Source: Blastocatellia bacterium (lineage in GTDB: Bacteria; Acidobacteriota; Blastocatellia; UBA7656). From it: 64,000 nt of DNA. The position numbers and the translations under genes are program-made. Positions 5,415 to 63,771 of this stretch are shown in pieces; position 1 is the stretch's first letter; every line of letters starts with the position of its first letter. The DNA is taken from contig DASUNP010000110.1 in NCBI GenBank assembly GCA_036277095.1, positions 5,444-69,443 of the forward strand. Reading direction: 5' to 3'. The notes below the pieces were generated by a model. It was not told the DNA's origin, searched no databases, and saw only the letters and a program-made list of their open reading frames with translations.

Positions 5415-5555
5415 CAGGGGTCGGGGGTCAGGGGTCAGGGGTCAGGGAAGAGGTTATCTGAAATATCAAATTTGTATGGCGGATGATGCGCTTGCGCGCG
5501 CCGCGATTACAAATCCCTGATCCCTGGCCCCCGACCCCCGACCCCTGGAGAGATT
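5415..5555 (+). repeat. Type-A junction element: phased heptamer array (CAGGGGT)x5 - AT/GC core - (ATCCCTG/ACCCCCG/ACCCCTG)x5, forming a ~33-bp imperfect inverted repeat; G-quadruplex-capable G-run arm
   Basis: Read directly: caggggt|cgggggt|caggggt|caggggt|cagggaa ... atccctg|atccctg|gcccccg|acccccg|acccctg|gagagat|tATG. The 7-nt phase is kept across all 141 nt. The right arm contains the SD of the next gene. Confidence 0.8.
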
Positions 5556-7982
5556 ATGGACACACTCATACAAGATTTGCGATACGCGGTCCGTATGCTG
5601 ATCAAGAAACCTGCATTTACTGCCATCGCTATTATCACGCTCGCGCTCGGCGTCGGGGCGAATACGGCGATCTTTAGCGTGGTCAACTCTGTTCTGCTTG
5701 AGCCGCCTCCATACAATGAGCCAGACCGGCTGGTCTGGCTCTCTCATGAGGATTCGCTCACGCCCGCAGACTTTCTCGATTACCGCGAGCAGGCGCAGAC
5801 GTTCGAGCACATTGCCGCGTTCATAGGCTGGGGCGTCAACCTCACGGGCAAAAGTGAGCCCGAGCGTTTGGCGGGCGCGCTCGTCTCCCCGGGGTTCTTC
5901 TCCGTGCTCGGCGTGCCCGCGATGATCGGTCACACCTTCACACCAGAACAGGAGCAGGATGCTTCCGCCCGATTTGCGGTCTTGAGCCACGGGCTGTGGG
6001 AGCGCCGTTTCGGGGCTGACGCCGGTGTCGTCGGCAGCTCGCTTCTGCTCAACGGCGAGAGCTTCACAGTAGTCGGAGTCATGCCGCGCGATTTTCGACA
6101 CCCGAGCGGAAAGGCCGAAGTCTGGGGCTTGGCAAGGCGAGTTGTGCCGGAATTGCCTTTCCGCACTTCCGACGTTATGCAGAACCGTCATCTGCATTAC
6201 CTTCAAGTCATCGGGCGGTTGAAGCCCAATGTGGCGATCACCCAGGCCCAGGCGGAGGTCGATACGATAGCGCAACGGCTTGAGCAGCAATACCCGAACA
6301 CGAATAAGGATGAACGCCTCGCGCTCGTGACCGTTCAAGAGCACGTAGTCGGCGATCTGAAGCTGCCGCTTTTGATACTGCTCGGGGCCGTCGGGTTCGT
6401 GTTGTTGATCGCGTGCGCGAACGTCGCGAACCTGATGTTGGTGAGGGCGAGCGGGCGCCGCCGCGAGATAGCCATACGCACAGCCCTCGGGGCGCAGCGG
6501 GGGCGAATAATCCGGCAGCTTCTGACCGAGAGCATGTTGATGGCTCTCGTCGGCGGGGGCGTGGGGCTGTTGCTTGCGCTTTGGGGCACGGACCTGCTGA
6601 TCTCCGTCAGCCCCGGCGCTCTGCCTAGCTTGAGAGATATAAGCCTCGACTCTCGCGTGCTCGCCTTCACACTTCTCACGTCGCTTTTGACGGGAGCGAT
6701 CTTCGGCCTTGTCCCCGCGCTCCAGGCGTCAAAGCCCAACCTGAACGAATCGCTTAAGGAGGGGAGCCGCAGCGCGGGCGGAGCGGGCAGCGCGCGAGTT
6801 CGCAACTCGCTTGTCGTAATCGAGATAGCGCTGTCGCTCGTTCTGCTCGCGGGCGCGGGACTTCTGATAAACAGCTTCCTCAAGCTCGCAAACACCGACC
6901 CCGGCTTCAAGGCTGAAGGCGTGTTGACTATGCGGCTCAATCTTTCAGGCAGCAATTATCAAAAGCCCGAACAGCTAGCCGCGTTTTACACTCAACTGCT
7001 CGACAGAGTCGAGGCTCTGCCCGGGATCGAGCGTGTGGGAGCAATCGAAGTCGCCCCGGTATTTTCGCGCGGCGCTTTTTACAGCTTTATCATCGACGGG
7101 CAGCCCGCCCCGATGGGCGAGCAGCAACGCGATAACGCTTCGGGGTTTCACTCCGTAAGCCCCGATTATTTTAACGCGATGGGAACTCCCTTTTTGACGG
7201 GCCGCCAGTTCAACGAAGCCGACACGCGTGAATCCGCGCAGGTGGTGATTATCAACCAGGAGATGGCCGAGCGCTACTGGCCCGGCGAAAGCCCTATCGG
7301 CAAGCGCATCAGTTACGGGACCAACGCCGATAACCAGCCGTCGTGGGTAGAGATCGTGGGCGTAGTCGGAAACGTGCGCCACGTCGGGTTGGACACCGAT
7401 GTCGACCCCGAGGCTTACGTGCCTTACACGCAAGCGCCTTATCGCTATATGACAATTATGATCCGCACGGCGACCGATCCCGAAAGCGTTGTCGCGGCAG
7501 TGCGGAGCCAGGTGCAGGCCCTCGACCCGCAGCAGCCTGTTTATGATTTCAAACCCATGACAGAAGTGATCGCGGATTCGCTCGCCAAGCGGCGGCTGAG
7601 CATGTTGTTGATAGGCATATTCGCTGCGGTGGCGCTCTTGCTTGCCGCCGTAGGAATATATGGCGTGATGTCGTACGCCGTCACGGAGCGGACGCGCGAG
7701 ATAGGCATTCGCGTCGCGCTCGGCGCGCAGATGGGCGATGTCATGAGACTTGTCGTGGGGCAGGGAATGACGCTCGCGCTCATAGGCATTGGCGCGGGTC
7801 TGGTCGTGGCGTTCTTGCTGACGCGACTCATAGAGAGCTTGCTTTACAAAGTGAGCACAACAGACCCGGCAACCTTCGTCGCGATCACTCTATTGCTCTT
7901 TGCAGTTGCATTCGTGGCGAGTTACATCCCCGCGCGTCGAGCGATGAGAGTCGACCCGATGGTCGCGTTGCGTTACGAATGA
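5556..7982 (+). CDS. ADOP-type duplicated permease
   Basis: 808 aa. MDTLIQDLRYAVRMLIKKPAFT ... [31 protein letters not shown] ... [16 protein letters not shown] ... [18 protein letters not shown] upstream. Its 3-prime end overlaps the convergent STAND gene by 10 nt. Confidence 0.9.
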   Translation: MDTLIQDLRYAVRMLIKKPAFTAIAIITLALGVGANTAIFSVVNSVLLEPPPYNEPDRLVWLSHEDSLTPADFLDYREQAQTFEHIAAFIGWGVNLTGKSEPERLAGALVSPGFFSVLGVPAMIGHTFTPEQEQDASARFAVLSHGLWERRFGADAGVVGSSLLLNGESFTVVGVMPRDFRHPSGKAEVWGLARRVVPELPFRTSDVMQNRHLHYLQVIGRLKPNVAITQAQAEVDTIAQRLEQQYPNTNKDERLALVTVQEHVVGDLKLPLLILLGAVGFVLLIACANVANLMLVRASGRRREIAIRTALGAQRGRIIRQLLTESMLMALVGGGVGLLLALWGTDLLISVSPGALPSLRDISLDSRVLAFTLLTSLLTGAIFGLVPALQASKPNLNESLKEGSRSAGGAGSARVRNSLVVIEIALSLVLLAGAGLLINSFLKLANTDPGFKAEGVLTMRLNLSGSNYQKPEQLAAFYTQLLDRVEALPGIERVGAIEVAPVFSRGAFYSFIIDGQPAPMGEQQRDNASGFHSVSPDYFNAMGTPFLTGRQFNEADTRESAQVVIINQEMAERYWPGESPIGKRISYGTNADNQPSWVEIVGVVGNVRHVGLDTDVDPEAYVPYTQAPYRYMTIMIRTATDPESVVAAVRSQVQALDPQQPVYDFKPMTEVIADSLAKRRLSMLLIGIFAAVALLLAAVGIYGVMSYAVTERTREIGIRVALGAQMGDVMRLVVGQGMTLALIGIGAGLVVAFLLTRLIESLLYKVSTTDPATFVAITLLLFAVAFVASYIPARRAMRVDPMVALRYE

Positions 7983-10900
7983 TCGTCAGTGGTGATTTCT
8001 AAACCTAGTTGCCGGGCAATCTCTTTTACTTCCTTATTGCGCCTGCCGTAGCCCATGCGCTCGATCATCTCTTTGGCAATTTTCCAATGCTCGCGAGCTT
8101 TGTCCCGATTGCCCTGCGCCAGATGCAGCCGTGCATATTCCAGATGACAATTAGCGAGATGCAAACCCATCCCGCTACGTGTGGCTATGCGAAGCACTTC
8201 AGTTAGATCGCGCTCGGCCAGCCCGTAATCACCATTAACCCGATGCAACTCCGCGCGCGTCAGCAGCCCGCGCGGTAAATGATGCGTTGTGCCTGCTTGT
8301 CGCAGTCCGTCCACGGCGCGTTGCAAAAACTCCGCCGCCTGTGTGGTATCACCCCTGCCCGCCTGTTGCGCTCCTAGCAGCGATGCGCGCCCCATTGAGA
8401 GATTATCCAATGCGATTTCGAGCAGCCAGTTGTTGCGTCTGGCAATCTCAAGCGTGTAGGCAGCGCGTTCTTTCACATCCTGTATCTGGCCCTGATTGAG
8501 CAGCAGATCGCAGTACTGAAATCCCCTCAATGAATAGAGGAACCTGTGTGCAGGCTGCCCTTGCTTTTCCATCTCTTCGGCCTCACGAAAGGCAATGACA
8601 GCTTCCTCTGTATGCCCCGCCTGATACAACGCATCGGCGAAGGCTGCTCTACTGATCATTCGTGGAAACTCGTCACCGCTGCGATCCGCCAGATCCACGC
8701 TCTGCTGGGCGAAGACGAGCGCCTGCGGCAGGTCGCCAATAGTCACGTAGAGTTCGCTGAGGTTGAGGGCATTGATAGCAGCATTTTCCCAATTCTCGCT
8801 TGCGATCCGCGCTTCCAACCCTGCCTGCATCGGCTGTGCCGCTTCCTCCAATCGTCCCAACGCTCGCAAATTAAAGCCAGCTTCACTCAGCACAAACGCT
8901 CTATAAGCATCCGAGAATCCTGCTACGGGTTGTTCCCATAGTATTTCAAAGAAGCTGGACAGTGTCGCCAAATCAGCGCCAAATGCGCCGAGCTTATGAA
9001 TACTAAATGCTTCTCTCCCTCTCCGAATCCGCCGCGAAAAGACCTCACCCGATGCTTCCTGATGTCTGCCCGCTGCGCAGCCATGCAAGACGGCTGCGAA
9101 CAGAGGCGACATCTCTTCCACCGTGTCAGGAAATTCTTTCGTTGTGCGCTTGAGGTGTTCGTAGAGCCGATTGTTCGCTTCCCGCCATGCGTCAGGGCGC
9201 TCGCGTTTGAGTTGTTGTTTGAAATACTCGCGCACCAGCGGATGAGCGTCCAGTGTGTCAGGCTCATTAATCAATTCTGCGCCCAGCAGCTTGATTCGGC
9301 GCAGATTTGCCAATGCCTCTTGCCATTTCACTTTACTCACATCCTGCAGCGCTTCGGTCAGACCCAGAATAGCGGGGGCCGCGCGCAAGGCAGCGATGCT
9401 TGCTGCGTCGGCGGGACGATCAAACAGCCCCATCATACGCAGCACCGCAAGTTCTACGCCTTCGCCCAGCCACTTCTCATAGGCAGCAATCATCTTTTGT
9501 GCCTTGTCGCCGGGCTGCCTGACATCAAACAGATTCTCAATCTCTCTGCGCCGCCGGATGTCTCCGCGCAACACCACATCCAGATAACTGCCCAACAGGG
9601 TCAGCGAGAAAGCGTGTCCGTTGAACTCTATTGCTGCCTCTTCCAATTCCTCTTCATCACCTTTGACATTCAGCGCACGCAAAACCTGTGCGCCTGCTTG
9701 CGGCGACAACTGGTCGAGGTCATGTTGTATGACCGTACTGTTTTCAAATTCAACCAGATCGCTCACTCGTTCGCGCGTCGAGATTACACACAACCCCGGT
9801 TGATGCGCCGCCAACTCGCGCAAAAGCGCCTGCAACGCCGCATCCTTCAACAATCCTCCTTGCGCGCCCGGCGGATGTTGCAGCGGTTCGAGTCCGTCGA
9901 GAATCAGCAGCGTGCGAGTCTGTCGAATAAGCCGCGCAAGCCTCTCGCCTTTGTCCCACGGCGTGCCTTGCGTCGGGTCATTGTCGCCAAAGTCTCGTAG
10001 CGCAGCGTAAATAAATTCATCGGCAGATGTCGCTTGCTCGTTCGTGCCCTGAGAGTAAAACGACCAGCTATAGACGCGCTCCGCGCCGCGATAGTTGTCG
10101 CGGGCCATGCGTTGTTTCACCCAATGATTGACCAGCGCGGTTTTGCCTACGCCGCCCCAGGCGACGAAAGCAATGATGTTGGTATTCGGATTCGCCCACG
10201 AGTCGTCGAGGAGTTGCAATTCTGCGTCGCGGCCAAAAAGGTCAGGCCCGCTCGTCGGCAAACGTGATATGGAGATCATGTCAGGCTCTAGCGATGGAGG
10301 TTTTTGCGGTTGAGATTCGATTGCAGTGTCAGTAGATGACCTTGATTGCGGGCCTGCCAACAACCCCGATGCCACCATTTCAAGCACGAATTCGGCGGCA
10401 TTTTCAGAAGCGATCTTTTGTCTCTGTTTTTTGCGGACGCCTTTTTTCCCATCAGCCCAATCGCAGATTGCTTTAATGAGTATCCAATTGACTTTGCTTT
10501 TGCTTTGCTCGCAGGCGATGTACAACCCTCCGCCTTCCATCTCTCCGCCAATCGCTTCTTCCGATAAGGCCAGCAGTTCATCCCGATAATCAATATTGTC
10601 AATCAACTTCTGCCCTGAAAGCACTACCCCGAAATCTACACCTGCTTTCTTCCAGCGCAGCCGAATCGTCCGAAAACGATCAAGCAGCTTTTCTGAGCAG
10701 TGCGGCTTGTCTCCCCGTAGGATGATTTTAGTTGCGCCTGCTTCTGTCGTCGCTACACGCTGAAGTTCATAAGGTTGAAGCTGCAATGAGACGAGGACAT
10801 CGCCAATCTTCTGCTTCTTAGGATTCACGCCAAAGGCGATTCCAACCAGGATGACATCGGATGGTTGCACCTCATCTATGGCATCTTTAACCGTCAGCAG

Positions 10901-11125
10901 AGAGCCGCCCCTTGTGTCTGCGCCCATTTCAGACCTGACGGCGAAAACACGCACGCCGCCGATCTCCCCCAGGTCGAAATAGGTTTTATGCCTTCCTGGT
11001 AGTTCCTTGTAATCGCGGTTAGTCAGGGCTTTGGTCCGTTCAAGCAGAGACTCGGTTTCGACGTCTGTCACGGTGACGAGTAAAACATCGCATCTCGATC
11101 TGAGTTCAGTGCCGGGCTTTTCCAT
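7973..11125 (-). CDS. STAND NTPase with N-terminal PNP_UDP/MTA-nucleosidase-like domain, NB-ARC ATPase and C-terminal TPR repeats (NLR-like, candidate defence/signalling protein)
   Basis: ORF-track frame 7973..11269. N-terminal region (RCDVLLVTVTDVETE ... GADTRGGSLLTVKDAIDEVQPSDVILVGIAFGV ... GGEMEGGGLYIACE) resembles purine/MTA nucleosidase motifs; compare the EME-x-A motif of MtnN. Walker A AWGGVGKTALV. Walker B TLLILDGLE. Sensor-1-like CVISTRE. GLPL-like GHAFSLTLLG. MHD-like DAHPLVREY. The C-terminal ~400 aa is helical-repeat/TPR-like. Start set at MEKPGT (11125), just before the first beta-strand of the nucleosidase fold. The upstream in-frame ATG at 11269 would add 48 low-complexity R-rich residues and lies inside a hairpin. 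Confidence 0.8.
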   Translation of the reverse strand: MEKPGTELRSRCDVLLVTVTDVETESLLERTKALTNRDYKELPGRHKTYFDLGEIGGVRVFAVRSEMGADTRGGSLLTVKDAIDEVQPSDVILVGIAFGVNPKKQKIGDVLVSLQLQPYELQRVATTEAGATKIILRGDKPHCSEKLLDRFRTIRLRWKKAGVDFGVVLSGQKLIDNIDYRDELLALSEEAIGGEMEGGGLYIACEQSKSKVNWILIKAICDWADGKKGVRKKQRQKIASENAAEFVLEMVASGLLAGPQSRSSTDTAIESQPQKPPSLEPDMISISRLPTSGPDLFGRDAELQLLDDSWANPNTNIIAFVAWGGVGKTALVNHWVKQRMARDNYRGAERVYSWSFYSQGTNEQATSADEFIYAALRDFGDNDPTQGTPWDKGERLARLIRQTRTLLILDGLEPLQHPPGAQGGLLKDAALQALLRELAAHQPGLCVISTRERVSDLVEFENSTVIQHDLDQLSPQAGAQVLRALNVKGDEEELEEAAIEFNGHAFSLTLLGSYLDVVLRGDIRRRREIENLFDVRQPGDKAQKMIAAYEKWLGEGVELAVLRMMGLFDRPADAASIAALRAAPAILGLTEALQDVSKVKWQEALANLRRIKLLGAELINEPDTLDAHPLVREYFKQQLKRERPDAWREANNRLYEHLKRTTKEFPDTVEEMSPLFAAVLHGCAAGRHQEASGEVFSRRIRRGREAFSIHKLGAFGADLATLSSFFEILWEQPVAGFSDAYRAFVLSEAGFNLRALGRLEEAAQPMQAGLEARIASENWENAAINALNLSELYVTIGDLPQALVFAQQSVDLADRSGDEFPRMISRAAFADALYQAGHTEEAVIAFREAEEMEKQGQPAHRFLYSLRGFQYCDLLLNQGQIQDVKERAAYTLEIARRNNWLLEIALDNLSMGRASLLGAQQAGRGDTTQAAEFLQRAVDGLRQAGTTHHLPRGLLTRAELHRVNGDYGLAERDLTEVLRIATRSGMGLHLANCHLEYARLHLAQGNRDKAREHWKIAKEMIERMGYGRRNKEVKEIARQLGLEITTDDHS

Positions 11126-11260
11126 CCTAAGCCTCACGCTATTGATCGAAAGTAATCTCAACCATACTAATCGAATTTCTCGAAGTGGCAAGGGCAAAGA
11201 ACGGCGGACGACAGAAGTCTTTATATTGGGAAACCATTTCCCAAAAGTGAACATCCGCCG

Positions 11261-11287
11261 GGCCGCCATTATTTGGCGGCCTTTTTC
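11261..11287 (+). terminator. Perfect 8-bp-stem palindrome GGCCGCCA-TTATT-TGGCGGCC followed by TTTTTCT (intrinsic-terminator-like on the + strand) in the divergent STAND/response-regulator intergenic region
   Basis: Read directly at 11261..11281 plus the T-tract. It overlaps the alternative upstream ATG (11269) of the STAND frame. Confidence 0.45.
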
Positions 11288-15027: not shown

Positions 15028-15069
15028 TTTCAAATTTGAGATTTGAGATTTGAGATTGAGAGGGAACCT
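15028..15069 (+). repeat. AT-rich heptamer junction (TTTCAAA then TTTGAGA x3), 42 nt = 6 heptamers, merging into the SD
   Basis: tttcaaa|tttgaga|tttgaga|tttgaga|ttgagag|ggaacct ATG. Confidence 0.8.
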
Positions 15070-17544: not shown

Positions 17545-17620
17545 CATCGTCATTCGTCATTTGTCATTTGTCCTTCGCATTCTCTTCAAAGGACGAATGA
17601 CTAAGGACAAAGGACAGATT
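17545..17620 (+). repeat. Type-B junction element: (TCATTCG/TCATTTG/TCATTTG/TCCTTCG) arm and complementary (GACGAAT/GACTAAG/GACAAAG/GACAGAT) arm forming a hairpin whose right arm supplies the SD
   Basis: catcg|tcattcg|tcatttg|tcatttg|tccttcg|cattctc|ttcaaag|gacgaat|gactaag|gacaaag|gacagat|tATG. Short remnants GACAAAGGACA(G/A)ATTATG also occur at 411-427 and 22628-22643. Confidence 0.75.
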
Positions 17621-20038: not shown

Positions 20039-20170
20039 CAGGGATCAGGGGTCAGGGGTCGGGGGTCAGGGTTTTGTAATTTCAATGGCGGATGATGCGC
20101 TTATGCGCGCCGCGATTTCAAATCCTTACCCCTGACCCCTGGCCCCCGACCCTCGACCCCTGGAGGGATT
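20039..20170 (+). repeat. Type-A junction element (second copy)
   Basis: cagggat|caggggt|caggggt|cgggggt|cagggtt ... tccttac|ccctgac|ccctggc|ccccgac|cctcgac|ccctgga|gggattATG. Shares the central block atggcggatgatgcgctt..gcgcgcgccgcgatt with the 5415 copy. Confidence 0.8.
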
Positions 20171-22627: not shown

Positions 22628-22640
22628 CAAAGGACAAATT

Positions 22641-25061: not shown

Positions 25062-25171
25062 CAGGGATCAGGGGTCAGGGGTCAGGGTTTTGTAATTTCA
25101 AATTTCAGATTTGAGATTTCAAATCCTTACCCTTGACCCCTGGCCCCCGACCCCCGACCCCTGGAGGGATT
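25062..25171 (+). repeat. Type-A junction element (third copy; AT-rich heptamer core instead of the GC-rich central block)
   Basis: cagggat|caggggt|caggggt|cagggtt|ttgtaat|ttcaaat|ttcagat|ttgagat|ttcaaat|ccttacc|cttgacc|cctggcc|cccgacc|cccgacc|cctggag|ggattATG. Confidence 0.8.
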
Positions 25172-27607: not shown

Positions 27608-27648
27608 TTTCAAATATCAAATTTGAAATCTCAAATTGAGGGAAGCCG
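27608..27648 (+). repeat. AT-rich heptamer junction
   Basis: tttcaaa|tatcaaa|tttgaaa|tctcaaa|ttgaggg|aagccgATG. Confidence 0.7.
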
Positions 27649-30075: not shown

Positions 30076-30116
30076 CTCAAATCTCAAATTTGAAATTTCA
30101 AATTGAGGAGAAAGCG
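30076..30116 (+). repeat. AT-rich heptamer junction
   Basis: ctcaaa|tctcaaa|tttgaaa|tttcaaa|ttgagga|gaaagcgATG. Confidence 0.7.
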
Positions 30117-33699: not shown

Positions 33700-33760
33700 A
33701 AGTGCTGAGTCCTGAGTAATTGTTTTCCACTCAGCACTCAGCACTCAGGACTACAGAAAG
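33700..33760 (+). terminator. Hairpin after the repeat-protein gene (GTGCTGAGTCCTGAGT ... ACTCAGCACTCAGGAC)
   Basis: Inverted repeat read directly. No clear U-tract, so function as a terminator is uncertain. Confidence 0.4.
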
Positions 33761-33773
33761 GTTGAGCAACTTT

Positions 33774-36174: not shown

Positions 36175-36552
36175 ATGCGGAAACATCTCGGCAGACTATC
36201 ATCTCTCTTTGTATCGCTTGCACTCCTGGCCGTAGTCTTTCAAGCCCATGCGTCCGACGACTTGAAGCTCAACGGCAGCGCTTCAAGCGCGACCCAGACT
36301 AAAGAGCTAAAGCTCCCTGTTTCAGAATCGGCAAAAAAAGGTCGCCTGCAAGTAAGGGCTAACGTGAAATCGGGCACGATCAGGTGGACGTTGCGCGACC
36401 CGGAGGGCATCGAGCGATTGACCGTAAACGGGAGCGGCGGTCGCGTCTCGGGCGACACGGGCGAGATGACGACTACGCGAGGGACCTGGAAGCTTGTGAT
36501 GGAGCTTAAGGACGCGACTCTCGATTATGAGATCGATTGGGTAGCTCGTTAA
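36175..36552 (+). CDS. Small secreted protein (125 aa), hypothetical
   Basis: Strong SD GAAAGGAGACGAAATG. Signal peptide MRKHLGRLSSLFVSLALLAVVFQAHA. Starts 13 nt after the preceding permease stop. Confidence 0.6.
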   Translation: MRKHLGRLSSLFVSLALLAVVFQAHASDDLKLNGSASSATQTKELKLPVSESAKKGRLQVRANVKSGTIRWTLRDPEGIERLTVNGSGGRVSGDTGEMTTTRGTWKLVMELKDATLDYEIDWVAR

Positions 36553-41566: not shown

Positions 41567-41608
41567 TTTCAAATTTCAGATTTGAGATTTGAAATTGAAA
41601 GGAAGTAT
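41567..41608 (+). repeat. AT-rich heptamer junction, 42 nt
   Basis: tttcaaa|tttcaga|tttgaga|tttgaaa|ttgaaag|gaagtat ATG. Confidence 0.75.
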
Positions 41609-44038: not shown

Positions 44039-44157
44039 CAGGGATCAGGTGCCAGGAGCCGGGGGCCAGGGATTCGTAATTTCAAATCTCAAATTTGATA
44101 TTTCAAATCCTTCTTTCCCCTGAACCCTGACCCCCGATCCCCGACCCCTGGAGAAAG
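44039..44157 (+). repeat. Type-A junction element (fourth, degenerate copy; 119 nt = 17 heptamers)
   Basis: cagggat|caggtgc|caggagc|cgggggc|cagggat|tcgtaat|ttcaaat|ctcaaat|ttgatat|ttcaaat|ccttctt|tcccctg|aaccctg|acccccg|atccccg|acccctg|gagaaag|ATG. Confidence 0.75.
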
Positions 44158-48122: not shown

Positions 48123-48146
48123 ATATGCTTATAGGTTTGAGATATT

Positions 48147-48255
48147 TCACCGCCGCAGACACAGAGCACACAGAGTTTACGCAGAGCAGAATTATGTTCT
48201 CTCTATACGTTTTCTCTGCGCCCGCTCTGTGTTCTCTGCGTCTCTGCGGTGAATT
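48147..48255. repeat. REP/MITE-like dispersed hairpin repeat, copy 1 (CACCGCCGCAGACACAGAGCACACAGAG ... CTCTGTGTTCTCTGCGTCTCTGCGGTGAAT)
   Basis: Long imperfect inverted repeat immediately after the amidohydrolase stop. It shares a ~30-nt near-identical core (CTCTGTGTyCTCTGCGTCTCTGCGGTGAATyCT) with the copy at 63686..63771. Confidence 0.6.
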
Positions 48256-48342
48256 CTATTTGTTTTCTAAAGCTGAAATTAACTGAAACCAAATCTGGCA
48301 AAAAGGCACTAACCGGGTGAGAATACGTTTCGGAGGAAAGAA

Positions 48343-49179
48343 ATGAAACTCTATTTCAAGCCATTACTCACCCTAGCGACAATCGTTCTGCCTTTCTGCC
48401 TGACGGCGGCGGCGCAGAGCAAGGATTTTAAGAAGACGGTCGATCTTGAACAGGGAGGCAGTTTATCACTGTCAACAGACAAGGGCAGCGTCCGGCTCAG
48501 CTCGTGGAGCCAGAACCAGGTCGAGATCGTCGCCCGCATAGACCCGCCCGATGAAGTGAGTCCGGACTACGCACGCCGCGCGATTGAAGGCGTCGTGATC
48601 GAAGTCCTTGGCGGGGGCCGCTCGCTGACCATCCGCTCGAATTTCGAGGGCGTCCCGTACCGAGAAGATTTCGGCGGCCGTTCGAGAACGCTTCCCAACG
48701 TTCATTATGAGATACGCGCGCCTCGCAGCCTCAAGCTCAACGTCGATATAGACAGGTCCAGAGTCGACCTTAATGGGTTTGAAGGCAGCATAGAAATACA
48801 CTCCGACCGAACCCCCGTGACGGCTACCGACATTGCGGGCGACATACGGCTGCGGATGGATAGGGGCGAGCTCACGCTCTCGAAGGTCAGAGGGGCGCTC
48901 AACGTCGACACCGACCGGACGGACATCAATTTGCAGGGCGTTCGCTTCGAAGGCGATTCTCGATTCGACATGGATCGCGGCGAGCTGGACATAAAGCTTG
49001 CCGAGAGCCAGGGCCTCTCTATACAGACCGACCTTTCGCGGAGGGGCGATTTTACTACAGACCTTCAGATAAGCATGCAGAACATGCGCGGCAAGAATTT
49101 TGACGGGACCATAAACGGCGGCGGCCCTCGCGTGGTCTTTAGAACCGACAGGGGCCGCATACGATTGAGGCGCGAATAG
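48343..49179 (+). CDS. Secreted beta-repeat protein, DUF4097-like (putative adhesin / LiaG-YvlB-like fold)
   Basis: Signal peptide MKLYFKPLLTLATIVLPFCLTAAAQS. Repeated strand motifs GDIRLRMDRGELTL / GALNVDTDRTDINL / GDSRFDMDRGELDIKL, typical of DUF4097 beta-helical repeats. SD GGAGGAAAG upstream. Confidence 0.6.
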   Translation: MKLYFKPLLTLATIVLPFCLTAAAQSKDFKKTVDLEQGGSLSLSTDKGSVRLSSWSQNQVEIVARIDPPDEVSPDYARRAIEGVVIEVLGGGRSLTIRSNFEGVPYREDFGGRSRTLPNVHYEIRAPRSLKLNVDIDRSRVDLNGFEGSIEIHSDRTPVTATDIAGDIRLRMDRGELTLSKVRGALNVDTDRTDINLQGVRFEGDSRFDMDRGELDIKLAESQGLSIQTDLSRRGDFTTDLQISMQNMRGKNFDGTINGGGPRVVFRTDRGRIRLRRE

Positions 49180-49278
49180 AGTCAGTTGTCAGTTGTCCGT
49201 TGTCCGCGGTCAGTCGTGGGAGCGGCCTTCGTAAGCGCGAGCAACTGACTGCGGACAACTGATTAAGGACAACTGAAT
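49180..49278 (+). repeat. Type-C junction hairpin built from (CAGTTGT) and complementary (ACAACTG) heptamers
   Basis: gtcagttgtcagttgtccgttgtccgcggtcagtcg ... gcaactgactgcggacaactgattaaggacaactga. Imperfect ~35-bp inverted repeat between the DUF4097-like gene and the next permease. Confidence 0.65.
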
Positions 49279-51723
49279 ATGAATGACATTCGTCTCAGCC
49301 TTCGCTCTCTTTTCAAGAGGCCCGGCTTCACCGTTGTCGCCGTCCTGACTCTAGCTTTAGGGATCGGCGCTAACTCTACGATCTTCACTCTCGTTAACGC
49401 AGTCCTGCTACGGCCTCTCCCCGTCGAAGAACCCGACCGGGTCGTAAGCGTCTACGCGACCTCGCCCGACGGCGCTCGCTCCTCGCGCTTTTCGTATCTC
49501 GATTATGTCGATTACCGCGACCGGAACGAGGTGCTGGCGGGGCTTGCGGCTCAGAACTTGACCCCCATCACTCTCGGCGTCGCCGAAGGCGCGGAGCCCA
49601 TACTCGGACAGATAGTCTCGGGAAACTACTTCACGGTCCTGGGCGTCGGCGCGCGTCTCGGAAGGGTCTTCACAGCGGAAGAAGACCGACAAGGCAGTGA
49701 GCGCGTCGCGGTCGTCTCTCACAGCTTCCACCAGCGCCGCTTCCCCGCAGAGCCCGACGTGACGGGTAAGATTATTTACTTGAACGGCGATGCGTTCACC
49801 GTCATCGGCATCATCGAAAAAGATTTCACGGGAACGAGCATAGGGCCGTTCATTGACGTCTGGGTACCGATGATGCAGACCGGAAACTGGATGGGGCCCG
49901 ACTGGATGGGGAACCGCGCGCGGGCACAGCTCCAGATGATCGGCCGCCTCAAGCCCGATGTTTCGCGCGACGAGGCGCAGGCGAATATGAGCACGCTCGC
50001 CGCACAGCTCGCACAGGAGTACAAGGAACCGGGCCGCGCCGACGGCGTAGAGCTTACGCAATCATCGCTCATAGAAGGGCGTCGCCGCACGGCGGTAGCG
50101 GCGTTCTTTGCGATACTTCTCGCAGTAGTCGGGCTCGTCTTGTTGATCGCCTGCGCGAACGTGGCGAACCTGTTGTTAGTTCGCGCGCTCTCGCGCAGGC
50201 GCGAGATGGCGATAAAGCTGGCGTTAGGCGCGGGGCGCTTCAGGCTCATGCGGCAGTTCATGACCGAAAGCCTTTTGCTCGCGCTCGCGGGCGGCGGCGC
50301 CGGATTGTTAATATCTCTGTGGGCAGGCAACCTCCTGCACAATTTCAACCCGCTTCCTTCCTTTCCCATTCAATTCGACCTTTCGGCGGACGCCCGCGTG
50401 ATCGCGTTCGTCTTCGCCGCCTCGCTCGTGACGGGGGTTGCGCTCGGCATTATTCCCGCGCTGCGCGGCACGCGGCCCGATCTGCTCGCGACTTTAAAAG
50501 ACGAAACCAGCTCTGTCGGAAGCGGCTCAAGCAAGTCGCGCCTGCGCAACGTGTTCGTCGTGGCCCAGATATCGCTTTCGCTCGTTCTGCTGATCGGCGC
50601 GACGCTTTTGGTCCGCAGCCTCCAGAACTCGCAAGCAATCGATCCGGGCTTCAGGCCGGAAAACGCCTTTGCCATGGATTTCGACCTCGACCTGAAAGGC
50701 TTTTCCGAAGAGAAGGGAAGAGAGTTTTACGCGCGTATGATCGAGCGCGTCTCCGCAGTGCCCGGCGTCGAGGCGGCTGCGATTGCCGACCGCGCGCCGC
50801 TCGACATCTCGACCACGACGACAGGCGTTCTCATCGAAGGCTATGAGCCTCCTGCGGGAAAGACTGCCATCCCCATTTCGGCTTACACCGTTGGACCGGG
50901 ATATTTCGGGACTACGGCCATACCGTTGGTCGGCGGGCGAGATTTCACAGTGCGGGATGACAAAGACGCGCCGCAGGTCGTCATCATCAATCAACAGATG
51001 GCGCTCAGGTATTGGCCCAACGAAAACCCTATAGGAAAGCGGTTCCGCCTCGCCGCGCAATCGGCCCAGAAGCTGCCGGAAATGATCGTAGAAGTGATAG
51101 GCGTGGCGCGCGACTCCAAATACCGGACGCTTTCTGAAGAAGCGACTCCGCACGTCTACCTGCCGTTTCTACAGAGCTACAAACCCGGGATGACTCTGAT
51201 AGTGCGCGTGGCGGGCGACACACGGCAGATGATGAGGACTGTCCGCGCAGAGTTGCAACGGCTGGACAAAGACCCGCAGGCATTCTTTCCCCGAACCATG
51301 TTCGAGCACATGGCCGTAGTGCTCGCGCCGGGTCAGATAGCCGCCACTCTCTTTGCTATCTTCGGGCTGCTCGCGCTCGCGCTTGCCGTCGTAGGCATCT
51401 ACGCCGTGATGGCTTATTCAGTCACGGAGCGCACGCGCGAGATAGGCATTCGCATGGCGTTAGGCGCGAAGCCCTCCGACGTTTTCAAGCTCGTAGTTGG
51501 AAAAGGTCTGATCTTATCGGCGATCGGCACGATTATAGGGCTTGCGGCTGCCTTTGCGCTGACACGATTCTTAGCGGGCCTGCTGGTCGGGGTGAGCGCG
51601 ACCGACCCCGCGACATTTGCGGCGATCCCCGCGCTGTTCACTCTCGTCGCGCTTCTAGCGAGTTACCTGCCTGCGCGCCGCGCGATGCGCGTCGATCCGC
51701 TGGCGGCGCTCAAACATGAATAA
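49279..51723 (+). CDS. ADOP-type duplicated permease (divergent N-terminus)
   Basis: MNDIRLSLRSLFKRPGFT ... [31 protein letters not shown] ... [16 protein letters not shown] ... VDPLAALKHE. Confidence 0.88.
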   Translation: MNDIRLSLRSLFKRPGFTVVAVLTLALGIGANSTIFTLVNAVLLRPLPVEEPDRVVSVYATSPDGARSSRFSYLDYVDYRDRNEVLAGLAAQNLTPITLGVAEGAEPILGQIVSGNYFTVLGVGARLGRVFTAEEDRQGSERVAVVSHSFHQRRFPAEPDVTGKIIYLNGDAFTVIGIIEKDFTGTSIGPFIDVWVPMMQTGNWMGPDWMGNRARAQLQMIGRLKPDVSRDEAQANMSTLAAQLAQEYKEPGRADGVELTQSSLIEGRRRTAVAAFFAILLAVVGLVLLIACANVANLLLVRALSRRREMAIKLALGAGRFRLMRQFMTESLLLALAGGGAGLLISLWAGNLLHNFNPLPSFPIQFDLSADARVIAFVFAASLVTGVALGIIPALRGTRPDLLATLKDETSSVGSGSSKSRLRNVFVVAQISLSLVLLIGATLLVRSLQNSQAIDPGFRPENAFAMDFDLDLKGFSEEKGREFYARMIERVSAVPGVEAAAIADRAPLDISTTTTGVLIEGYEPPAGKTAIPISAYTVGPGYFGTTAIPLVGGRDFTVRDDKDAPQVVIINQQMALRYWPNENPIGKRFRLAAQSAQKLPEMIVEVIGVARDSKYRTLSEEATPHVYLPFLQSYKPGMTLIVRVAGDTRQMMRTVRAELQRLDKDPQAFFPRTMFEHMAVVLAPGQIAATLFAIFGLLALALAVVGIYAVMAYSVTERTREIGIRMALGAKPSDVFKLVVGKGLILSAIGTIIGLAAAFALTRFLAGLLVGVSATDPATFAAIPALFTLVALLASYLPARRAMRVDPLAALKHE

Positions 51724-51744
51724 TCATCGATTGAGGGGTAAGCA

Positions 51745-54174: not shown

Positions 54175-54244
54175 TATCGTCATTCGTCCTTTGTCATTTG
54201 TCCTTTGCAGGTAATGCAGAGAGTGCAAATGACAAAGGACAAAG
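54175..54244 (+). repeat. Type-B junction-like hairpin terminating the array (no permease gene follows)
   Basis: tatcg|tcattcg|tcctttg|tcatttg|tcctttg|caggtaa|tgcagag|agtgcaa|atgacaa|aggacaa|ag. Inverted repeat TTGTCATTTGTCCTTTGCA / TGCAAATGACAAAGGACAA. Confidence 0.7.
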
Positions 54245-57906: not shown

Positions 57907-58602
57907 TCAGTCATCGGCTATGCGGCCATCCCTGATGTTGATGATGCGGTGGGCGAGCGAGGCGTTCTCGGGGTTGTGAGTGACGACGAATATCGTTTGA
58001 CCTTGCTCGTTGAGCCTCAAAAAGACTTCCATCACCTCGCGCCCCGTGCGCGTGTCGAGCGCGCCCGTAGGCTCGTCCGCAAGTATGAGCGGGGGCTCGT
58101 TGACTATGGCGCGCGCGATGGCAAGGCGGCCCTGCTCGCCGCCCGACATCTGGTTCGGGAAGCGCGCGGCTTTATCGGCAAGCCCCACCTTTTCAAGCAC
58201 AGTCATGGCCCGCTCGCGTTTCTCCCGCGCGCTCAGGCTGATGGTGGTGAGCGGCAGCATCGCGTTTTCGACTGCGGTCAGGTATGGCATCAGGTGATGA
58301 TGCTGGAAGACGAAGCCGAGGTATTCGCGGCGGAAGTCTGCGCGCCGCTCGTCTTCGAGCCCGTACACGTCGATATTGTCTATGAGCAGACGGCCCTCGG
58401 TCGGGTGGTTCATCGCCCCTATGATGGTAAGCAGCGTCGTCTTGCCCGAGCCTGACGGCCCCATCAAACAGATGAACTCGCCTTCGGCGACGGCGGCGTT
58501 CACATCCGCGAGCACTCGCACCCCGCCATTGGTTCCGTCTGTGTGATAAACCTTGCTGACGTTTTCCAGTTTTACGAAAGACACTGTGGTCGGTTTCCTC
58601 AC
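57907..58602 (-). CDS. ABC transporter ATP-binding protein (MacB/LolD/FtsE-type)
   Basis: Walker [10 protein letters not shown]. Signature MSGGEQGR. Walker [14 protein letters not shown]-loop VVTHN. Overlaps the upstream permease gene by 4 nt. Confidence 0.9.
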
Positions 58603-59849
58603 ACGTATCGGACCGCTTCGGAAGGGTCGAGCCGGGACGCGCGAATGATCGGATAGAAGCTGCTAAGAATTCCTATCACAAGTCCCGCCGTGATGGCGGC
58701 GAGGGCGAGCGCGGGTTGTAACTGGAAGGCTATCTCTGTTTCGGCGAAGTAAGGCAGCGCCGCCCAGCTTGCAGCGGTCCCGGCGGCCCACCCGACCAGC
58801 CCGCCGATCACGCTTATTACCGCCACCTCGATAATCAATCCTTTTATGATGTGTGCCTTTCTGAATCCTATGGCCCGCAAAACGCCTATCTCTTTCGTCC
58901 GCTCGATGACCGAGCCCATCATGGTGGTGAATATCATCAACGCGCCGATGCTCAAGACGATCACGGCGACGATGGCGAAAAACCTGGTCAGTCGCTCGAC
59001 GGTCTCGGCGCGCGCGCGGACGGACTGTTGTATGGCAGACACCTTTGCGTGCGGGAGCCGCCCGCCGATTTGCGCGACTATGTCTTCGACAGGACAGTCC
59101 TTGCACAGCGCAGCCACTTCAATGAGGCTCAACTGGCCGGGCCTGCCGACCAGTTGCTGAATGTGCGATAGCTCTCCGAAGATCATGTGGTCTTCCGGCC
59201 CGCCCGTCTGTGCGAGCACGCCCGCCACGCGGTGCTCGCTGCCTGCGACCTGCAACCGGTCGCGAACGATCTTGAATTGATGGGCATTCTCACTCTCGTC
59301 GTGCGCGCCGTTGTGCGAGCTGTGCGAGACGGCTGCGGGCGCTGAGTCGGCGGTCATCTCTATGACCGAAAGGGCGCGGGCGACTTCGTAGCCCACGAGC
59401 AGATCCTGCGGGCTTGCGGGGCGGTTGCCCGCGATGTGCCACCATCGTTTGAGCTTCAGCTCGCTTTCGAAATCTACGCCGGCCATCACCACGGTCTTTC
59501 CTTCGACCTCGATCGTGCGCAGCAGCTTTGGCGCGACGATGCTCAGGCGGTTGCGGTAAGGGATGTCGAGCAGGTCCGTCGCGTCCTGGGTTTTCAACTG
59601 CTGCTCGTCTATCGAGACGCTCGACACACTGATGCCCCCGTAGTTGAGCGACATGCTGTTGGACTGCGGAACGACCACAATGTTTGCGCCGAACTGGTCG
59701 AGCTGCGAGCCTATCTCTTCTTTAATCGAGCCGCTCAAGCTCAACAGGGCCACGGCCGTTCCTATGCCGATGGCAATGCCTATGATCAGAAAGAGGGCCT
59801 TGCCTTTACGGCGCTTGAGGTTTGCAAAAGCGATTGTGCTGATTCTCAT
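58599..59849 (-). CDS. ABC transporter permease, single FtsX domain with MacB-like periplasmic domain (LolC/E-MacB type)
   Basis: 416 aa. TM1 FLIIGIAIGIGTAVALLSL. Large periplasmic domain. C-terminal FtsX ERTKEIGVLRAIGFRK...[10 protein letters not shown]. Operon with the ATPase. Confidence 0.85.
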   Translation of the reverse strand: MRISTIAFANLKRRKGKALFLIIGIAIGIGTAVALLSLSGSIKEEIGSQLDQFGANIVVVPQSNSMSLNYGGISVSSVSIDEQQLKTQDATDLLDIPYRNRLSIVAPKLLRTIEVEGKTVVMAGVDFESELKLKRWWHIAGNRPASPQDLLVGYEVARALSVIEMTADSAPAAVSHSSHNGAHDESENAHQFKIVRDRLQVAGSEHRVAGVLAQTGGPEDHMIFGELSHIQQLVGRPGQLSLIEVAALCKDCPVEDIVAQIGGRLPHAKVSAIQQSVRARAETVERLTRFFAIVAVIVLSIGALMIFTTMMGSVIERTKEIGVLRAIGFRKAHIIKGLIIEVAVISVIGGLVGWAAGTAASWAALPYFAETEIAFQLQPALALAAITAGLVIGILSSFYPIIRASRLDPSEAVRYV

Positions 59850-63685: not shown

Positions 63686-63771
63686 CACCGCAGAGACGCA
63701 GAGAACGCGGAGGTTACACAGAGAAAAACTCTGCGCCTCCTCTGTGTCCTCTGCGTCTCTGCGGTGAATCC
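63686..63771. repeat. REP/MITE-like dispersed hairpin repeat, copy 2
   Basis: TCACCGCAGAGACGCAGAGAACGCGGAGG...CCTCCTCTGTGTCCTCTGCGTCTCTGCGGTGAATC, immediately after the MscS stop. Same core as copy 1. Confidence 0.6.

Follow-up and report, generated by a model that had tools for sequence, protein, structure and literature searches.

The subject of this work is a hairpin element built of heptanucleotide repeats, which lies between two co-oriented genes in a 64,000-nt stretch of the Blastocatellia bacterium contig DASUNP010000110.1 (hereafter the window; positions without a contig label are window coordinates, and labels such as L002 denote related contigs that were retrieved for comparison). 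The element, referred to as the target, takes up the entire 99-nt spacer from the stop codon of a DUF4097-like gene to the start codon of a gene for an ADOP-family permease, and the sequence that an earlier reading of this DNA (the original prediction) had quoted for it was confirmed there (Table 1). The upstream protein matched NCBIfam LiaG (E = 1.3e-5) and Pfam DUF4097 (E = 7.5e-5; 22.6 bits, slightly below the cut-off of 22.9 bits), and an identical protein from a Blastocatellia metagenome-assembled genome, HEX5736631.1, has been annotated by NCBI as a member of the DUF4097 family. The downstream open reading frame (ORF) encodes a full-length ADOP permease and matched TIGR03434 ADOP with 914 bits (cut-off, 622). 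Approximately 20 tandem paralogs of such ADOP (duplicated MacB/FtsX) permeases, all co-oriented and without adjacent ATPase genes, are found at 425-54174 of the window.

The original prediction had described the spacer as an imperfect inverted repeat of approximately 35 bp, composed of a CAGTTGT-type 7-mer and its complement, and had proposed RNA folding as a check. Both arms were indeed found to consist of five 7-nt units. In an inverted-repeat search, 33-nt arms (49182-49214 and 49244-49276), located 29 nt apart, were 82% complementary by Watson-Crick pairing and paired at 29 of 33 positions when G-U pairs were included. Tandem Repeats Finder (TRF) reported a period of 7 with 3.4 copies and 94% matches in the 5' arm, in which up to five degenerate units can be counted, and a period of 14 with 2.5 copies in the 3' arm. 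The match between the arms goes beyond the common heptamer, because the non-consensus unit TCCGCGG of the 5' arm is mirrored by CTGCGGA in the 3' arm. The foot of the stem is 2 nt past the upstream stop codon, and its end is 2 nt short of the downstream ATG. Folding confirmed the stem: the minimum free energy of the target RNA was -54.1 kcal/mol, compared with -34.2 +/- 3.8 kcal/mol for dinucleotide shuffles (z = -5.27), and none of 200 shuffles was equally stable. The hairpin is single-copy within the 64-kb window, in which a pattern of two target units, with up to 3 mismatches allowed, occurred 6 times versus 0.24 expected. An identical element is present on an independent Logan contig, and homologous elements were found in assemblies from ENA, JGI and NCBI, which excludes an assembly artefact.

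Orthologous junctions were reached through protein homologs of the DUF4097-like gene, which gave 12 further contigs with 10 distinct sequences; a scan of genome contigs contained one true ortholog (L002), and a scan of metagenomes contained one truncated contig (L005). The same hairpin was found in 8 orthologs with protein identities of 75-95%, in all of which there are 5 + 5 units, the spacer is 99-116 nt long, the foot of the stem is 1-2 nt past the stop codon, and the ATG is 2-3 nt past the stem. When the degenerate version of L011 is counted too, a homologous hairpin is found in 9 distinct orthologous sequences. In the alignment, the arms are 74-100% identical to those of the window and the loop is 23-83% identical, and third codon positions show 53-88% identity over 240 nt of coding sequence on the flanks, the degraded downstream gene of L015 being excluded. 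The consensus structure has 28 pairs, with 94.9% of the alignment cells paired, and sliding the partner strand by 1-3 columns lowered the pairing to 21-51%. Changes on both sides of a pair, which are compensatory, were observed in 5 pairs, a result that was matched by 2 of 500 column shuffles. The GGAC of the Shine-Dalgarno (SD) sequence is invariant in all 10 aligned sequences. As judged from this alignment, both the pairing and the sequence of the arms are evidently under purifying selection, while the loop drifts freely. Furthermore, one-sided changes on the plus strand gave G-U in 15 cells versus A-C in 5, and in 7 of the 9 target versions the plus strand gave the better fold of the two strands; this excess of G-U pairs and the better folding of the plus strand lean towards selection on the sense RNA. 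The orthologous 5' arms contain more G (0.29-0.34) than C (0.17-0.21).

A phase-variable (contingency) simple sequence repeat (SSR) was also considered and was rejected, because the number of units is constant at 5 + 5 in all versions that keep the hairpin, across protein identities of 75-100%. In one of the orthologous contigs (L015, 1115-1348), the ADOP gene 3' of the conserved hairpin consists of an N-terminal fragment fused to a C-terminal fragment, i.e., it carries an internal deletion, and both the hairpin and the following junction are retained despite this deletion.

The target is not the only element of this kind. The original prediction stated that three unrelated sequences (GGGGTCA, TGTCATT, and CAGTTGT) are organized identically, as a heptamer array, a loop, a complementary array, and a start codon. 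The four GGGGTCA elements and the two TGTCATT elements to which it referred are real (Table 1), and our survey, which covered the window and about 160 kb of related loci, found the same architecture, ending in an SD sequence or start codon, built from clearly different units of approximately ten types: GGGGTCA, TCATTTG, TCAGTTG, CAGTGTG, GATTTTA, ATGCGTG/TGAAGCG, AAGGCAA, GGTTTCT, AAGGATG/TGAAGGA, and CTGAGTx. In addition, partly self-complementary, AT-rich TTTCAAA/TTTGAGA arrays occupy short spacers. TRF reported period 7 in 20 of 53 rows for the window and period 14 in 5, all but three lying in gene junctions, and of the 111 rows for the window and related loci together, 39 had period 7 and 12 had period 14, the next commonest period being 9 (16 rows). 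A complementary array is located within 220 nt downstream of 24 arrays. The word "unrelated" suits GGGGTCA and other units that are plainly different, but not the other two sequences, whose units (TCATTTG and TCAGTTG) are one base apart; both of these families alternate GTCA and GTCC units, and both have 3' arms bearing GGAC/AAGGA. A covariance model of the target was uninformative on their descent, with the TCATTTG hairpin scoring no better than unrelated CAGTGTG hairpins (about 40 bits each). The idea of a "TCA/TGA core" common to all units was dropped once AAGGCAA, CAGTGTG, and ATGCGTG turned up.

Table 1. Coordinates of the target, its parts, the flanking genes, and the other heptamer elements of the window
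Feature	Position	Strand	Evidence or pairing
DUF4097-like (toastrack/LiaG-like) upstream cistron, 278 aa, stop codon TAG at 49177-49179	48343-49179	+	
ADOP-family duplicated MacB/FtsX-type permease, downstream cistron, 814 aa, start codon ATG at 49279	49279-51723	+	
Intercistronic spacer (target hairpin element)	49180-49278	+	sequence, inverted-repeat search, RNA fold
5' arm, 5 x 7 nt: TCAGTTG TCAGTTG TCCGTTG TCCGCGG TCAGTCG	49182-49216	+	sequence, repeat search, TRF
Loop, 25 nt, with a small internal stem; variable among orthologs	49217-49241	+	
3' arm, 5 x 7 nt: CAACTGA CTGCGGA CAACTGA TTAAGGA CAACTGA; 14-nt super-period; 2 nt from ATG	49242-49276	+	
Outer 9-bp helix, 5' strand TCAGTTGTC; best-conserved part of the stem	49182-49190	+	pairs with GACAACTGA at 49268-49276
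Shine-Dalgarno-like AAGGA of the permease gene, straddling the internal loop and outer helix	49265-49269	+	
Sister hairpin, units TCGTCAT/TCATTTG, 3' arm CAAAGGA; unit 1 nt off that of the target	17545-17620	+	TRF, sequence
Sister element, TCATTTG type, convergent junction (ADOP, then Uma2 on minus strand)	54175-54244	+	
GGGGTCA-family hairpin, ADOP-ADOP junction, -94.8 kcal/mol	5415-5555	+	
GGGGTCA-family hairpin	20039-20170	+	
GGGGTCA-family hairpin, AT-rich heptamer loop (AATTTCA)	25062-25171	+	
GGGGTCA-family hairpin, degenerate	44039-44157	+	
CTGAGTx/CACTCAG hairpin between a 378-aa ORF without family match and an ADOP gene	33700-33772	+	
AT-rich array GATTTGA x 5 filling an ADOP-ADOP spacer	15028-15069	+	
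AT-rich heptamer arrays like that at 15028-15069	27608-27648, 30076-30116, 41567-41608		

TCAGTTG units are found at the DUF4097-to-ADOP junction in orthologs that are 75-100% identical, and other heptamers are found there at 53-57% identity: the hairpin of L018 (53%) is built of ATGCGTG/CACGCAT, and that of L017 (57%) is of the GGGGTCA type and is preceded by a remnant of an ADOP C-terminus. Therefore, the architecture persists at this junction while its sequence is replaced. Neither of the outcomes that would have spoken against the original prediction was observed: heptamer arrays are enriched at ADOP junctions, and they are also present elsewhere. They were found in 33 of 56 spacers next to ADOP genes and in 3 of the remaining 39 (Fisher p = 1.7e-7 with an odds ratio of 17, for spacers that are not mutually independent), and the three non-ADOP arrays are all in L019, at a MoxR/NUDIX junction, in the 5' region of a DUF4097-like gene, and at a sigma-factor/anti-sigma junction, which indicates that the pattern is not limited to ADOP genes. 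In 10 of the 11 unit types, G exceeds C in the 5' arm when the sense strand is read, so that the arms are biased with respect to the direction of the genes.

Copies within a family have apparently spread between paralogous junctions by gene conversion or by unequal recombination, with the conserved termini of ADOP genes as anchors, as suggested by a comparison of spacers with the genes that flank them. The CAGTGTG spacers of L017 share 84-99% identity, compared with a protein identity of 36-53% for the ADOP paralogs on either side, and the GGGGTCA spacers of the window are 65-78% identical between proteins with 41-53% identity. For instance, L017 7366-7478 and 13408-13520 are 99% identical, with 1 mismatch over about 160 nt, and are flanked by ADOP paralogs with 40-51% protein identity. 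The near-identity of this pair includes the last ~20 nt and the first ~27 nt of the genes and then decays gradually, with neither sharp ends nor a target-site duplication, which argues for gene conversion and not transposition. Anchoring in ADOP termini would also account in a simple way for the abundance of arrays at ADOP junctions. The number of units differs between paralogous GGGGTCA copies (2.7-5.6) and between the arms of L006 814-965 (8.4 versus 4.3), indicating that slippage has operated, and elements have been gained or lost at an orthologous junction, which is 21 nt long in the window (51724-51744) and holds a 141-nt GGTTTCT hairpin in L007 (3441-3581). The proposal that a shared mechanism and not common descent produced these structures is thus to be divided: there is good support for a process, common to unrelated units, that generates or selects such structures, but descent and conversion rule within a family, and the orthologous junctions indicate that the target was inherited vertically with an unchanged number of units. 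The check for a recombinase or an RNA-binding regulator encoded nearby, which the original prediction had proposed, was negative: none was found in the window or in the related loci with gene tables.

It could be argued that such hairpins are non-functional by-products, in which slippage makes the SSRs, intra-strand template switching (quasi-palindrome correction) or inverted duplication makes the complements, conversion between ADOP paralogs spreads them, and the spacers tolerate them. The differences in copy number, the spread of junction cassettes independently of genes, and the differences in presence or absence just described, to which the loss of the hairpin in L014 (see below) can be added, would all fit this account, as would the folding energies, which have no consistent strand bias across families, and the finding that the arms of the target remain 77-84% paired in alternative registers (+/-7 and +/-14), as is expected of repeats. 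Heptamers are also the most abundant class of long SSRs in many bacteria, which has been ascribed to polymerase slippage, according to the summary of Mrazek 2007 in PMC4679880. However, a by-product would not be expected to have arms that are better conserved than synonymous sites next to a loop that is not, to undergo compensatory changes, to keep its unit number frozen over 75-100% protein identity, or to place the G-rich arm 5' relative to gene direction in 10 of 11 families, and we consider this account rather unlikely.

An Rfam search of the whole window at gathering thresholds gave no match, and a permissive search of 48900-49500 gave only sub-threshold, generic look-alikes of microRNA precursors (E = 0.01-0.6). 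BLAST of the element against plasmids gave no match. By consensus scans, no sigma-70-like promoter was found in or around the element or in the junction loops, the numbers of sites being not above those in shuffles, and no U-tract terminator was found at or around the element, which has a 25-nt loop and the tail AATATG. The lack of both a promoter and a U-tract terminator is consistent with read-through transcription. The target does not combine the GC-rich stem, short loop, and U tract of an intrinsic terminator, and this candidate was rejected. A factor-independent terminator or attenuator that does without a U tract, setting the polarity between the DUF4097-like gene and the permease gene and between ADOP paralogs, is decidedly unlikely. 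Hairpin-only terminators have been proposed for high-GC phyla, the hairpins described here are strong, contain GC, and begin 0-6 nt past the stop codon, and members of the families are located at convergent junctions, where a terminator would be expected (54175-54244 and, likewise, L018 13383-13467). However, in addition to the absence of a U tract, their loops of 25-70 nt are far larger than those of intrinsic terminators, and since the ATG is 2 nt from the stem with no promoter-like site in or after it, efficient termination would silence the permease gene.

The explanation that we favor, with a probability of roughly 0.5, is that selection maintains the target as an RNA stem-loop in the sense polycistronic transcript, with roles in translational coupling and/or in the protection or processing of mRNA. 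According to this explanation, the DUF4097-like and permease genes would be co-transcribed, the stem would form in the mRNA, and the ribosome-binding site (RBS) of the permease gene would be closed by it. The element may have originated as a heptanucleotide SSR that was expanded by replication slippage and was then mirrored on the other arm, and later point mutations may have frozen the array at 5 + 5 imperfect units. The outer 9-bp helix and the internal loop hold the SD sequence (AAGGA), and the RBS would thus stay shut as long as the outer helix is intact. The helicase of the ribosome works at a distance of about 11 nt downstream of the P-site, and a ribosome that terminates at the UAG, 2 nt from the foot of the stem, would therefore start melting the outer helix and expose GGACAACUGAAUAUG, so that translation of the permease would be coupled to translation of the upstream ORF. 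The stem, which is approximately 30 bp long, might at the same time hold up 3' exonucleases or be a site at which the upstream segment of the mRNA is processed. A stem of this length immediately after a stop codon is at the classic site of stabilizers of the repetitive extragenic palindrome (REP) type and the puf type, and it is long enough for RNase III.

Several points weigh against this explanation. Transcription through the element is deduced from the gene order and from the absence of consensus matches for promoters and terminators. Because the orthologs are related to one another and the numbers are low, the covariation and the G-U counts are modest evidence. The hairpin is degenerate in L011 and is missing from L014 (80% identity), whose spacer measures 53 nt; judging from these two junctions, the hairpin is evidently dispensable. 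A terminating ribosome would probably unwind only the first few base pairs of the -54 kcal/mol structure, and release of the SD sequence is putative. In most other families the SD sequence lies just 3' of the stem, and occlusion of the RBS is therefore not a general function and applies to the TCAGTTG and TCATTTG types only. For the class as a whole, it is more likely that the role is protection or processing, or that the stem keeps the stop codon and the RBS close together despite the inserted repeats. Moreover, when the energies of the plus and minus strands are compared across all families the picture is mixed, so that an RNA-level function for the whole class of hairpins is putative. The unit size of 7 nt is also left unexplained by a functional stem.

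Another alternative is that the element is a series of binding sites for a protein whose modules each read about 7 nt, such as a cold-shock-domain, S1 or CsrA-like protein that acts on RNA or a protein that binds DNA, with the hairpin being secondary. It is the sequence of the arms, not their pairing alone, that is conserved, and the GGA motifs of the 3' arm, which have a spacing of 14 nt, are similar to the sites of CsrA. In addition, the CAACTGA units, interleaved with related 7-mers, end 2 nt before the ATG, which is comparable to the "split" TAACTGA sets of Beggiatoaceae, which end 1 nt before start codons and for which proteins of these kinds have been put forward (PMC4679880). However, no single sequence-specific reader would fit approximately ten unrelated units and a junction whose units vary from lineage to lineage, none of the loci has a gene for a candidate protein nearby, and covariation needs both arms, all of which makes such an array very unlikely.

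According to the favored explanation, the target is one case of a Blastocatellia-wide habit, in which operons, and especially arrays of ADOP paralogs, are punctuated by heptamer hairpins of arbitrary sequence. A bolder and distinctly improbable proposal is that sequence-agnostic heptamer hairpins serve as general operon punctuation in Blastocatellia. In that case, the base of the stem would bring the stop codon to the RBS and start codon, terminating ribosomes would re-initiate by shunting over spacers of 100-140 nt, and the 7-nt period would come not from chance but either from a dedicated generator, such as hairpin-templated slippage with a 7-nt step, or from an RNA chaperone that reads heptads. 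If this proposal were true, the dominance of heptamers among the long SSRs of bacteria would become experimentally approachable.

Some other features of these junctions were observed. The 13-nt spacer at 22628-22640, CAAAGGACAAATT, resembles a bare 3' arm (two units and an SD sequence) of a TCATTTG-family hairpin, which may suggest how full hairpins relate to minimal junctions. The loops of the GGGGTCA hairpins share a conserved module, ATGGCGGATGATGCGC...GCGCGCCGCGAT, at 5478-5512 and 20085-20115, which is also present at L007 3447-3480; from its sequence, it can be read as a putative mini-ORF of 14-16 codons or as what may be left of an ADOP C-terminus (..ARAA..). At L017 10841-10910, the remains of an ADOP C-terminus are clear and lie immediately 5' of a hairpin.

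Hairpins and repeats that are not built of heptamers were also found. At the junction between an amidohydrolase gene and the DUF4097-like gene (48123-48342; core at about 48147-48253), there is a hairpin of approximately 125 nt, CACCGCCGCAGACACAGAG...CTCTGCGTCTCTGCGGTG, with CAGAG-type units of 8-9 nt. It is also present in the 78% ortholog (L002 9810-9930), and L006, L008, and L013, which are closer relatives, lack it, as does L012, in which the spacer is about 75 nt long; this distribution would imply repeated loss or site-specific gain. Paired arrays with a period of 8-9, which probably belong to the same class, are located at 63689-63763 (CGCAGAGA / TCCTCTGCG) and at L002 17721-17791 (GACACAGAG / CCTCTGTGT). 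An ADOP-ADOP junction of L017 (15996-16131) contains a near-perfect hairpin of approximately 48 bp, GGGGCAGGGCTTGTCCCTGCCCGGATCG..., with -93 kcal/mol, and L019 9454-9556 contains a perfect tandem repeat of 17 nt x 6.1 (CAATAAATGTATTCATT), in a divergent region upstream of a DUF4097-like gene and adjoining an ATGCGTG hairpin.

With regard to other genes of the window, a conventional pair of an ABC ATPase and a single FtsX permease is encoded at 57907-59849, on the strand opposite to the ADOP array. Lodged within the array, on the minus strand at 7973-11269, is a gene for a 1098-aa protein with PNP_UDP phosphorylase-like and NACHT/NB-ARC domains and TPR repeats, whose product is a STAND NTPase with a defence-like architecture, and TIR and nSTAND genes were found near related loci (L006). 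The 438-nt gap between two ADOP genes contains a 125-aa ORF with a signal-peptide-like N-terminus (36175-36552).

Among known systems, the integron attC sites, including Vibrio cholerae repeats (VCR), have a similar layout: co-oriented genes are each followed by an imperfect hairpin whose structure is conserved and whose sequence is variable, with homogenization within an array. The junction elements described here are also more alike than the genes, and they differ in presence or absence between close relatives, as might a mobile or recombination element at gene junctions, be it an attC-like site, a REP or REPIN (a REP doublet forming a hairpin), or a miniature inverted-repeat transposable element (MITE). 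However, they lack the attC core sites, RYYYAAC (5') and GTTRRRY (3'), the target having GTTG in its 5' arm and CAAC in its 3' arm whichever strand is read, which is the reverse of attC, and the genes are paralogs of one family and not diverse cassettes. Neither an integrase nor a RAYT (REP-associated tyrosine transposase) or other transposase was found in the window or in any retrieved locus, identity between copies fades little by little within the coding ends, with neither sharp termini nor target-site duplications, and the target is single-copy in the window. A mobile element is thus extremely unlikely. An attC/integron identity was rejected on the order of the core sites and on the absence of an integrase domain in the window and in the flanks of loci with gene tables, and a MITE/REP identity was judged unlikely because sharp ends, target-site duplications, and a transposase were lacking in the retrieved DNA, the MITE test having been made on the multi-copy family of L017.

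REP sequences, bacterial interspersed mosaic elements, and other intercistronic stabilizers, such as the REP of malE-malF in E. coli and the puf element in Rhodobacter, are imperfect palindromes that are transcribed and located between co-directional genes or after convergent genes. REP-type hairpins shield upstream mRNA against 3' exonucleases and influence translation if they lie within about 15 nt of the stop codon. REPs are high-copy elements with one conserved sequence per genome and are mobilized by RAYT; their arms of 20-40 bp are not tandem heptamers. An overview of REPs is given in PMC3733652. For the target, neither a RAYT in the retrieved DNA nor a second copy in the 64 kb of the window was found.

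In cyanobacteria, heptamers of the short tandemly repeated repetitive (STRR) type were reportedly described by Mazel and colleagues in 1990, with several unrelated units per genome (CCCCAGT, TTGGTCA, and CAACAGT) that are intergenic and transcribed. Vioque is said to have described in 1997 an STRR inside the gene for RNase P RNA of heterocyst-forming cyanobacteria, in which the array and its complement pair and lengthen a helix. The STRR units differ from those of the target, and STRR arrays are not generally described as hairpins that run flush from a stop codon to a start codon. A unit that matches CAACTGA at 6 of 7 positions, TAACTGA, forms direct repeats in marine Beggiatoaceae and in some Cyanobacteria and Bacteroidetes (MacGregor 2015, PMC4679880). 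Like the 3' arm of the target, TAACTGA sets consist of 2-6 forward copies, which overlap the RBS and the last of which stops 1-2 nt short of the start codon, and "split" sets have a related 7-mer between units, as CTGCGGA and TTAAGGA are found between the CAACTGA units of the target (PMC4679880). However, the TAACTGA repeats of BOGUAY are direct only (1 inverted case in 170 sets) and predicted to be unstructured, whereas the array of the target is an arm of a 33-bp stem, and CAACTGA itself is seldom repeated in BOGUAY, with 3 doublets (PMC4679880). There is no evidence of shared descent between the TAACTGA repeats and the arm of the target.

The closest precedent of the target is the paired inverted heptamer repeats of Xanthomonas. 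Xanthomonas campestris and X. axonopodis have 70-75 convergent pairs of GGGAATC arrays per genome, which are located between aligned ORFs and are capable of forming stem-loops, with the G-rich array, on the coding strand, right after the stop codon and its complement right before the next start codon (Rehm 2015, PMC4692102). These repeats are mostly transcribed, have a preferred copy number of about 4-5, and keep their single or inverted type between species, and GGGGA(C/T)T heptamer repeats are known from Nostoc PCC 7120 (PMC4692102). The target likewise has tandem 7-nt units and a convergent complementary array, lies 2 nt from both the stop and the start codon, and has the G-richer arm first; the bias of the G-rich arm relative to gene direction is found in both the Xanthomonas and the Nostoc repeats (Rehm 2015, PMC4692102). 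In contrast to GGGAATC, the unit TCAGTTG has no G tracts and thus no G-quadruplex feature, although the GGGGTCA family of the window has it. Furthermore, the Xanthomonas work concerned one G-rich unit per genome and was read through G-quadruplexes, whereas approximately ten unrelated units are found here in Acidobacteriota (Blastocatellia). In the literature searched, no paper linking Acidobacteria with heptamer repeats was found.

The existing accounts of heptamers, such as those of the G-quadruplex repeats of Xanthomonas and TAACTGA of Beggiatoaceae, each concern one unit, and origin and function are left unexplained. The material described here separates structure from sequence, since many units form one type of hairpin, one junction swaps its unit, and one element has signs of selection and compensation. 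If the stems are functional, they would be a cheap and evolvable means of tuning relative expression in long operons and tandem paralog arrays, which would bear on the unusually large ADOP families of Acidobacteria; if they are not, slippage, template switching, and gene conversion could be studied in them as in a clean natural system. What is new in comparison with the earlier systems is the phylum, the coexistence of many units, the demonstrated constraint, and the replacement of the unit at one orthologous junction, and the covariation, the conservation of the arms above that of synonymous sites, the heptamer replacement, and the spread by gene conversion are found here and not in Rehm 2015.

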